Shown here in pieces: positions 17,518 through 19,731 of a stretch of 20,098 nt of DNA; the stretch's first letter is position 1, and each line of letters starts with the position of its first letter. Both the position numbers and the translations under genes were made by a program. Under the pieces are notes generated by a model. That model made no database searches. It was not told the DNA's origin and saw only the letters and a program-made list of their open reading frames with translations. Source of the DNA: a virus (Duplodnaviria > Heunggongvirae > Uroviricota > Caudoviricetes); the IMG/VR virus record IMGVR_UViG_2534681674_000022, positions 1 to 20,098 of that record; one strand, written 5' to 3'.

Positions 17518-19731
17518 ATGGTTCATAAATCTGACAGTGATGAATTAGCTGCATTGAGGGCAGAAAATGCCCGTCTGGTCTCATTACTTGAAGCTCATGG
17601 GATTGAATGGCGACGTAAACCGCAGACTCCTGTGCAGCGCGTTTCTGTATTATCCACCGACGAGAAGGTTGCATTATTTCGTCGGTTGTTTCGTGGGCGT
17701 GATGATGTATGGGCACTTAGATGGGAAAGTAAAACCAGCGGCAAATCAGGGTACTCTCCTGCCTGCGCTAACGAATGGCAGGCGAGAATATGCGGTAAAC
17801 CCCGGATAAAATGTGGGGACTGCGCTCACCGTCAGTTGATTCCTGTATCCGATCTCGTCATCTACCACCATCTGGCCGGTACCCATACTGTCGGGATGTA
17901 TCCGTTGCTGGAAGATGATTCCTGTTATTTTCTGGCAGTTGATTTTGATGAAGCTGAATGGCAGAAGGATGCATCCGCATTCATGCGATCCTGTGATGAG
18001 CTGGGTGTACCTGCTGCGCTGGAAATATCCCGTTCACGTCAGGGGGCGCATGTCTGGATATTTTTTGCCTCACGAGTTTCGGCCCGCGAAGCTCGCCGTC
18101 TGGGGACTGCTATTATTAGCTATACGTGTAGTCGGACCCGACAGCTGCGATTGGGGTCTTATGACCGATTATTTCCTAATCAGGATACTATGCCAAAAGG
18201 GGGATTTGGTAATCTCATAGCGTTACCTCTGCAAAAAAGACCGCGTGAATTGGGGGGAAGCGTTTTTGTTGATATGAATCTCCAGCCTTATCCTGATCAG
18301 TGGGCTTTTCTTGTATCGGTGACCCCGATGAATGTGCAGGATATTGAACCGACGATATTACGGGCTACAGGGAGTATCCATCCTCTGGATGTGAATTTTA
18401 TCAACGAAGAAGACCTGGGTACGCCGTGGGAAGAGAAAAAATCATCAGGAAACAGACTGAATATTTCTATTGCAGAACCGCTGAAAATCACGCTGGCAAA
18501 CCAGATCTATTTCGAAAAAGCGCAATTACCTCAGGTGCTGATTAACCGACTTATTCGGCTGGCAGCATTTCCGAACCCTGAGTTTTATAAGGCTCAGGCA
18601 ATGCGTATGTCAGTCTGGAATAAGCCCCGTGTTATAGGTTGTGCGGAGAATTACCCGCAACACATTGCGTTGCCCCGGGGATGTCTGGACAGCGTATTAT
18701 CTTTCCTTAGGGACAACAATATTGCTGCAGAATTAATCGATAAACGATTTGCCGGGACGGAATGTAATGCCGTTTTTATGGGAAACCTCAGAGCGGAGCA
18801 GGAAGAGGCCGTTTCGGCATTACTCCGTTATGACACTGGTGTGCTTTGTGCGCCAACGGCTTTTGGTAAGACAGTTACCGCAGCGGCAGTGATTGCCAAG
18901 CGGAAAGTGAATACACTGATACTGGTACACCGGACTGAATTGCTGAAGCAGTGGCAGGAGCGTCTCGCGGTGTTTCTGCAGGCCGGTGACAGTATTGGTA
19001 TTATCGGGGGAGGTAAACATAAACCCTGTGGCAATATTGATATTGCGGTGGTGCAGTCCATATCCAGACAAGGAGAAGTTGAACCTCTGGTCAGGAATTA
19101 TGGGCAAATCATTGTGGATGAGTGCCATCATATTGGCGCGGTTTCATTTTCTGCGATTCTGAAGGAAACGAATGCCAGATATCTGCTTGGCCTGACGGCA
19201 ACACCAATCCGACGGGATGGTCTGCATCCCATTATTTTTATGTACTGTGGTGCCATTCGCCATACAGCGGTCCGCCCGAAGGAAAGCCCACATAATCTGG
19301 AGGTACTGATCCGTTCCCGTTTTACATCTGGTCATTTACCATCGGATGCGAGAATCCAGGATATTTTCAGAGAAATTGCTCTGGATCATGACAGAACGGT
19401 GGCGATAGCTGAAGAAGCCATGAAAGCTTTCGGGCAGGGGCGAAAAGTTCTGGTACTGACTGAACGTACAGATCATCTGGATGAGATAGCATCAGTGATG
19501 AATTCACTGAAATTGTCTCCCTTTATTCTCCATGGTCGACTATCGAAAAAAAAGCGTGCGATGCTGATATCCGGGCTGAATGCTCTTCCTCCCGATTCTC
19601 CTCGAATTTTGTTGTCAACAGGCAGACTTATTGGTGAGGGATTTGACCACCCTCCGCTGGATACGCTGATTCTTGCCATGCCTGTGTCATGGAAAGGGAC
19701 ATTGAACCGCCCCGGGAATCCTGGAGACTAA
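17518..19731 (+). CDS. Large multidomain protein: coiled-coil, Cys-rich region, PrimPol/AEP-like domain and SF2 DEAH-box helicase; 3' end cut by IS629
   Basis: Helicase motifs APTAFGKT (I), DECHH (II), LTATP (III) and [11 protein letters not shown] (V); motif VI is missing because the frame enters IS629 at 19703. N-terminal FLAVDFDE and GAHVWIFF resemble primase-polymerase motifs I and II. Start taken at the ATG at 17518 (track uses GTG at 17494). Confidence 0.6.

Follow-up and report, generated by a model that had tools for sequence, protein, structure and literature searches.

The locus and its gene

The stretch of DNA analysed here (the window; 20,098 nucleotides, positions 1 to 20,098 of the IMG/VR virus record IMGVR_UViG_2534681674_000022) carries towards its 3' end a plus-strand gene whose product joins an archaeo-eukaryotic primase (AEP, or PrimPol) domain to a DECH-box superfamily 2 (SF2) helicase, and which is interrupted by the insertion sequence IS629. 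The open reading frame (ORF) ends with a stop at 19731 and, in the ORF listing of the window, starts at GTG 17494 or ATG 17518; the RefSeq start of the intact gene is the ATG equivalent to 17518, the coordinate also chosen in the first-pass annotation, an earlier reading made from the letters alone. The ORF at 17518-19731 described there, with a PrimPol-like and an SF2 part, is real, and all motifs quoted for it are found at their coordinates.

The gene is a catalogued Escherichia coli island gene and is already known. RefSeq protein WP_000233452.1 (786 aa), labelled by PGAP as 'TOTE conflict system archaeo-eukaryotic primase domain-containing protein', is 100% identical to the window ORF over residues 1-728. 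The uninterrupted allele, whose recovery had been proposed as a check, is present at locus L001 (9219-11579; 786 aa) and is identical to the window copy up to residue 728/729 (...WKGTL). The features of the gene and of the insertion are as follows.

17518-19702, +, island gene, AEP plus SF2 helicase, up to the IS edge (ORF list, RefSeq annotation, and match to the intact allele)
17521-17595, +, N-terminal helix, residues ~6-26 (AlphaFold2 [AF2] model)
17662-18348, +, AEP/Prim-Pol catalytic domain, residues 49-277 from the ATG (Pfam AEP-TOTE)
17764-17823, +, four-cysteine cluster C83/C92/C99/C102 within the AEP module (conservation)
17929-17952, +, AEP motif I FLAVDFDE, residues 138-145, with metal-binding D142 and D144 (motif mapping)
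18028-18066, +, AEP motif II region, residues 171-183, with nucleotide-binding H178 (GAH) (motif mapping)
18157-18186, +, AEP motif III region, ending in D216 (YD) (motif mapping)
18475-18762, +, middle alpha/beta domain, residues ~320-415, part of the helicase module
18784-19212, +, RecA-like domain 1 (ResIII/DEAD; Pfam ResIII, 2.8e-24)
18850-18873, +, Walker A APTAFGKT, residues 445-452 (motif mapping)
19117-19128, +, DECH box, residues 534-537 (motif mapping)
19192-19206, +, helicase motif III LTATP (motif mapping)
19432-19702, +, RecA-like domain 2, truncated, with motif VI and the C-terminal ~58 residues gone (Pfam Helicase_C, 2.1e-5)
19618-19647, +, helicase motif V, residues 701-710 (motif mapping)
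19703-20098, +, IS629 (IS3 family) copy 4, left inverted repeat and orfA, extending past the window end

Primase-polymerase and helicase modules

The order of Pfam domains along the protein (AEP-TOTE, then ResIII, DEAD, and Helicase_C) confirms that the DECH-box SF2 helicase comes after the AEP domain. PF22548, 'TOTE conflict system, Archaeo-Eukaryotic Primase domain', is matched over its full profile with 329.4 bits (E 1.6e-98; cut-off 27), and DNA_primase_S with 33.9 bits (cut-off 26.8); the view that the N-terminal region is AEP/PrimPol-like is upheld by this match and by the presence of the catalytic residues, which lie 36 residues apart from D142 to H178. The SF2 helicase assigned to the C-terminal part is likewise borne out, by the ResIII match and by motifs I, II, III, and V. 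At such scores for both halves, the motifs quoted are not chance matches. In alignments of 113 and of 67 homologues D142, D144, and H178 are invariant or nearly so, and D216 is invariant; across the 113 homologues, at 36-62% identity, no helicase motif varies, nor do the catalytic residues of the AEP domain. All four cysteines of the cluster are invariant across the 67 sequences, and the cluster is presumed to form a zinc knuckle.

By sequence, the nearest solved relative of the AEP domain is the Prim-Pol domain of the Marinitoga CRISPR-associated PrimPol, CAPP (PDB 7nqd/7nqf; 7e-8), and the fold is also near LigD and Prim-PolC. A PADLOC profile for the Cas-associated 'PrimPol' is matched at 2e-147; the NCBIfam CAPP model NF040561 gives 84 bits, below its cut-off of 200. 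The nearest solved relatives of the helicase are archaeal XPB (PDB 6p4f; 3e-20) and RadD, with scores far under the NCBIfam equivalog cut-offs (XPB, 60 vs. 610; RadD, 47 vs. 720). Pfam sees SF2 families only: no superfamily 3 (SF3), D5_N, PriCT, DUF3987, or RepA-type helicase is fused to the AEP domain.

In the AF2 model the N-terminal helix (residues 6-26) is followed by the AEP domain (~46-285), a disordered linker (293-311), and a confident alpha/beta domain (~320-415). The helix is probably a coiled coil that would serve self-association; in one relative (P0134) a leucine-zipper (HALZ) match lies at the same position. The alpha/beta domain resembles the accessory domains of two enzymes with branched DNA as substrate, UvsW and PriA, and is probably an accessory domain for binding DNA junctions.

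A separate observation concerns phage proteins: SF2 'DNA helicases' in phage records H53-H67 (for example Vibrio phage LV6, 66384-67637) align with residues ~320-780, that is, with the middle alpha/beta domain and the helicase core, at 25-29% identity, and none of them has an AEP domain.

Truncation by IS629

The interruption lies in codon 729. The left end of IS629, TGAACCGCCCCGGG..., starts at 19703 (0 chance matches expected), and exact left ends occur three times in the window, the left inverted repeat at this position (TGAACCGCCCCGGGAATCC...) included; the window start cuts another IS629, and counting that copy the element at 19703 is the fourth. Its orfA product matches HTH_Tnp_1 and IS3 transposase models. 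The window ORF ends in an IS629-derived tail of eight codons and a stop (NRPGNPGD and stop, nt 19703-19731). After ...WKGTL the intact protein continues with QQYAGRLHREHTGK..., comprising SF2 motif VI (QxxGRxxR) and about 50 more residues; in the L001 allele, which runs on past the IS junction as QQYAGRLHREHTGKSDVRIIDFVD..., motif VI reads QQYAGRLHR. Comparison with this allele confirms that copy 4 sits just after motif V and removes motif VI, the arginine-finger motif that the intact allele retains. Residues Q731, G734, R735, and R738 of motif VI are invariant among the 113 homologues.

SF2 helicases need the arginine-finger motif VI for ATP-coupled activity. With this invariant motif and the last ~58 residues lost, the window copy should have no ATP-driven helicase activity and is a pseudogene. 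Because the insertion spares the AEP domain and RecA-like domain 1, the cell might still produce a shortened PrimPol, provided that this protein is stable. The insertion is attributed to the well-documented activity of IS629 in the O157-type tellurite/urease island; deletions mediated by IS629 have also been described (PMC3064760).

None of 5,426 complete E. coli genomes has precisely the IS junction seen in the window. The nearest case is that of strains 111 and 112 (L005 3088-3252, compared with window 19640-19800), where an IS3-family element interrupts the gene 3 bp further downstream and the 3' gene fragment is kept after the IS. Either the two insertions arose independently at almost one position, or one of them derives from the other.

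Distribution and family architecture

Some part of the gene or of the 218 nt upstream of it is matched in 2,044 of the 5,426 complete E. coli genomes, with at least 80% coverage in 685, and the gene is present, mostly intact, in about 13%. In more than 1,300 genomes all that is left is the upstream region and the first ~250-350 nt, at 86-91% identity, which fits a dispensable, often replaced cargo gene. Two such remnants are the following.

L003 9207-9417, 5' remnant in Nissle 1917
L004 9219-9554, 5' remnant in WCHEC115106, followed by genes for a 1,652-aa AAA-domain protein and a 478-aa hypothetical protein

The remnants suggest repeated replacement of cargo with a breakpoint within the 5' end of the gene.

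Among 1.84 billion protein representatives, 3,338 clusters (50% identity) match at E<=1e-30; the best 150 of these show 37-67% identity, and most cover both AEP and helicase. A scan of one genome per species gave at least 591 confirmed loci, spanning Proteobacteria, Cyanobacteria, Firmicutes, Bacteroidota, Nitrospirae, Verrucomicrobia, Acidobacteria, Chloroflexi, Planctomycetes, Actinobacteria, and others. The fusion was found in 0 of 50,697 phage records and on 98 of 72,556 plasmids. A 'CAPP-Helicase' type has been defined by Zabrady et al. 2021 (PMC8211822), and PrimPol plus helicase is there the commonest architecture of non-CRISPR CAPP homologues, typically in mobile elements. The architecture, which the first-pass annotation had called unusual, is thus not so: it is named by PGAP, numerous, and described in print, and the protein belongs to a catalogued family.

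Many relatives have 920-1,100 residues, and those examined end in a PLD-like or a DUF559/MTES_1575 (Vsr-like) endonuclease domain; PNP_UDP_1, GNAT, or FMN_red is occasionally added at the N terminus. The best 120 matches to the family profile have 893-1,189 residues, with AEP, helicase, and PLDc_2 in 119 of them. Most relatives being longer and ending in a nuclease, the ~790-residue form of E. coli and other Proteobacteria is a nuclease-less variant. Mokosh, a defence system made up of a helicase and a PLD domain, may be compared with the PLD-bearing relatives. These relatives also share the logic of helicase plus nuclease with the ARMADA and Druantia YprA helicases and their Vsr-type nucleases (PMC12458937); those systems differ in having a helicase of another clade and no counterpart of the AEP polymerase, and the E. 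coli form has no nuclease.

Island context

The E. coli gene is preceded by a P4-type integrase gene, a hypothetical gene, and genes for an AlpA-like helix-turn-helix protein, a YfjI (DUF3987) protein, and a YagK/YfjJ-type protein. The island adjoins ycdU and has urease genes on board; a tellurite-resistance cluster has been assigned to the same O-islands (PMC3064760). Two backbone genes of the window precede the AEP-helicase gene.

14399-15847, +, YfjI-family DUF3987 protein, helicase-like backbone gene (Pfam DUF3987, 3.5e-85)
16800-17363, +, YagK/YfjJ-type protein, annotated 'inovirus-type Gp2' (RefSeq name)

The YfjI protein is 40% identical to YfjI of K-12. The YagK/YfjJ-type protein has weak matches, both under cut-off, to Pfam REP_ORF2-G2P and YagK_YfjJ_C and shares with K-12 YfjJ only the short segment YxWVxEYTxNxxxHxH; it is presumed to be the rolling-circle Rep-like initiator of the island. 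The shared segment looks like an HUH nuclease motif.

The CP4-57 element of K-12 has an equal backbone (intA, yfjH, alpA, yfjI, yfjJ), followed by abpB/abpA and rnlAB. The AEP-helicase gene is best explained as a cargo gene of a CP4-57-like integrative element, in the slot that AbpAB occupies in K-12. AlpA and Rep-like initiators are hallmarks of satellite-like elements bearing defence cargo (PMC12458937).

A YfjK/AbpB-type identity, one of the suggestions made earlier for the protein, did not hold. CP4-57 YfjK/AbpB and YfjL/AbpA (Hachiman-type) share with the present case the slot after yfjJ, an SF2 helicase, and a likely anti-phage role; in BLASTP, however, K-12 YfjK is 23% identical over 148 residues (E 0.008), with homology limited to the generic helicase motifs I-III, and it has no AEP domain. 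Hachiman identity was rejected as well, HamB profiles matching at E 2e-4 and 1.4e-3 over about 50 residues; no AbpA/HamA-like partner gene adjoins the island AEP-helicase gene.

Neighbouring genes and multi-gene systems

Outside E. coli, ORFs were called in 76 loci from many phyla, and the 822 neighbours were clustered by BLAST. The conserved neighbouring gene that had been expected around intact relatives was not found across these loci: the biggest neighbour cluster, DUF6155, occurs in 9 of them, and other clusters are AbiE, RhuM, Fic, and YhcG. Immediate neighbours (67 upstream, 65 downstream) were scanned with Pfam and PADLOC and read from the 25 most frequent families; they include AbiEii/AbiEi, RhuM, Fic, PIN, YhcG, AbiLi, AriA (PARIS), PDC-S05, and PemK, and also MNT-type nucleotidyltransferase pairs (NTase_sub_bind plus NTP_transf_2). 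In five annotated distant loci the AEP-helicase gene stands alone; one of these has PemK, Fic, an MNT-type nucleotidyltransferase pair, and DUF4143 ATPase genes as flanks, and in another smpB lies about 2 kb upstream.

TOTE stands for TPR, OB, TBP, and Effector (Aravind, Iyer and Burroughs 2022, as cited in PMC12458937). The window protein has in common with TOTE systems the AEP domain family, from which the Pfam name comes, and a predicted conflict role; TPR-OB and TBP genes, by which TOTE is defined, were found neither beside the window gene nor beside its relatives. No TPR, S1/CSD/OB, TBP, or cas gene occurs among window ORFs of at least 100 aa, and none occurs in the most frequent neighbour families (66-67 loci), TPR-OB and TBP partners being absent from all 25 of them, or in the five distant loci; one upstream neighbour in the 66-67 related loci matched a Cas12b (C2c1) RuvC-like domain. 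The TOTE label therefore names a domain family, not the window locus. Since neither the window nor about 80 related loci showed an adjacent TPR-OB or TBP partner, and no cas gene adjoins the window gene, the AEP-helicase gene seems to stand alone. On this evidence both a canonical TOTE operon and an association with CRISPR were rejected. From CAPP the case differs further: the window locus has no CRISPR array, the protein has no TPR or PriCT domain, and enzymatic activities are known for MpCAPP only.

The DUF6155 gene (~190 aa), absent from E. coli, usually lies on the same strand as the AEP-helicase gene; one example is given with its coordinates.

L067 12246-12824, DUF6155 gene, start about 40 nt downstream of the AEP-helicase gene

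The other loci with DUF6155 are L009, L015, L020, L024, L040, L041, L069, and L084. At L094 (5377-8001) a gene for AEP, helicase, and PLD lies about 2 kb downstream of smpB; the vicinity of smpB is the type of site that holds the integrated CP4-57 in K-12.

Proposed function and alternatives

We propose that the intact gene is a single-protein cargo gene for conflict with phages or plasmids, with a probability of roughly 0.55-0.6 for this defence role. The proposal draws on the slot shared with AbpAB of CP4-57, the nuclease-fused relatives, the lack of a conserved partner, and the near absence of the fusion from the phage and plasmid records searched; the defence role that the first-pass annotation had entertained is plausible, given also the Abi and toxin-antitoxin neighbours elsewhere. 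In the mechanism envisaged, the intact product (N-terminal helix, CAPP-like AEP domain with its four-cysteine cluster, flexible linker, alpha/beta accessory domain, and DECH-box helicase) would engage branched or single-stranded invader DNA through its helicase module, using ATP, and the PrimPol domain would prime and extend DNA on the exposed strand. In most relatives the fused PLD or Vsr-like nuclease would be the effector that cuts the target; the E. coli form, having no nuclease, may act through aberrant priming, unwinding, or host nucleases.

Several points weigh against a defence role. The searchable literature yielded no experimental work on the window protein or on any AEP-SF2 helicase fusion; PADLOC 2.0 includes the AEP only as the Cas-associated 'PrimPol', with no separate defence-system entry for it; neither a nuclease nor any other obvious effector is present in the E. 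coli form; the list of defence-type neighbours carries no comparison with a background rate; and at several distant loci the gene is set among housekeeping genes. Further, the island has a Rep-like protein and a DUF3987 helicase and no other primase, which leaves room for a role in island replication.

That role, in which the protein would act in replication or establishment by priming the complementary strand on a single-stranded circle produced by the YfjJ-type Rep-like initiator, beside the YfjI DUF3987 helicase, is quite unlikely in our judgement. The gene comes straight after yfjI and the yfjJ-like gene and shares their strand; the island module showed no further primase, and YfjI has no primase domain. 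AEP PrimPols of mobile elements are often replicases, a PrimPol has been found to pair physically with a DUF3987 helicase, and a DUF3987 protein has been shown to be a 5'-3' helicase (PMC11724360); Rep-like initiators and AlpA mark autonomously replicating islands (PMC12458937). In a Thermus mobile genetic element, however, deletion of a PrimPol (of a different family) left replication of the element unaffected (PMC7693054). CP4-57, with the same backbone, has no AEP and holds AbpAB in the slot, and more than 1,300 E. coli genomes do with the 5' remnant of the gene. The relatives stand alone, without Rep, integrase, or DUF3987 neighbours, their nuclease fusions would be odd for a replicase, and phage genomes lack the AEP-helicase fusion, which few plasmids carry. 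To our knowledge, no XPB-like SF2 helicase serves as a replicative helicase.

About equally improbable is a role in repair or damage tolerance, with the helicase remodelling stalled forks or breaks, the PrimPol re-priming or filling gaps after the models of LigD-PolDom, Prim-PolC, AgaPP, and human PrimPol, and the gene carried for fitness. The closest relatives of the helicase core are the repair enzymes XPB and RadD, its alpha/beta accessory domain is like that of T4 UvsW and of PriA, and the AEP fold is near LigD and Prim-PolC; XPB, RadD, and UvsW differ in having no fused primase-polymerase. PrimPols of mobile genetic elements with repair activities have been documented (PMC11724360; the PPRT protein, PMC12439943). 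Against repair stand the patchy, strain-variable distribution and frequent decay in E. coli, neighbourhoods rich in Abi and toxin-antitoxin genes, and the lack of a ligase, Ku, or other repair partner conserved beside the gene.

Least probable by far is a component of a multi-gene system, either a TOTE effector acting with a TPR-OB sensor and a TBP protein or a CRISPR-associated PrimPol in spacer acquisition, to which the Pfam and PGAP names, the nearest solved and characterised relative (CAPP), the described CAPP-Helicase type (PMC8211822), and the Cas-associated flag of the PADLOC model would point, and which is largely refuted at this locus by the missing partner genes, the NCBIfam CAPP score below cut-off, and the mostly non-CRISPR occurrence of the helicase type (PMC8211822).

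Within the defence proposal, a bolder version makes the nuclease-less AEP-helicase of E. coli and other Proteobacteria an immune system of one protein, with DNA synthesis itself as the effector. We regard it as unlikely. Aberrant priming and extension would take place on invader forks or single-stranded intermediates, guided by the branch-specific XPB/UvsW-like helicase; the system would then be a primase-based counterpart of the reverse-transcriptase (DRT) defences, and the window copy a dead allele. For the window the finding matters little: the gene is an annotated, widespread E. coli island gene, and its copy here is a pseudogene. The family is a candidate defence protein that joins in one polypeptide a de novo DNA primase-polymerase and a repair-type helicase, usually with a nuclease; if it is immune in function, bacterial defence would gain a primase-based mechanism, and an AEP family that has been an orphan for 20 years would have a function.

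Other features of the window

Upstream of the island, at 4042-8822, lie prophage-type genes.

4042-4515, -, DUF6645 protein, prophage-type
4524-5891, -, DUF1737 and SASA sialate O-acetylesterase-like protein, prophage-type
7252-7965, -, AraC-family regulator, prophage-type
8415-8822, -, Ash-family protein, prophage-type

The P4-type integrase gene is missing from the island of the window, and the backbone is joined to prophage-like DNA. IS629 copy 3 (9567-10887, -) abuts the island backbone (10888-11014) at the position expected for the integrase gene, and the island sequence starts about 30 bp past the integrase stop of L001. The junction at copy 3 looks like an IS629-mediated rearrangement.

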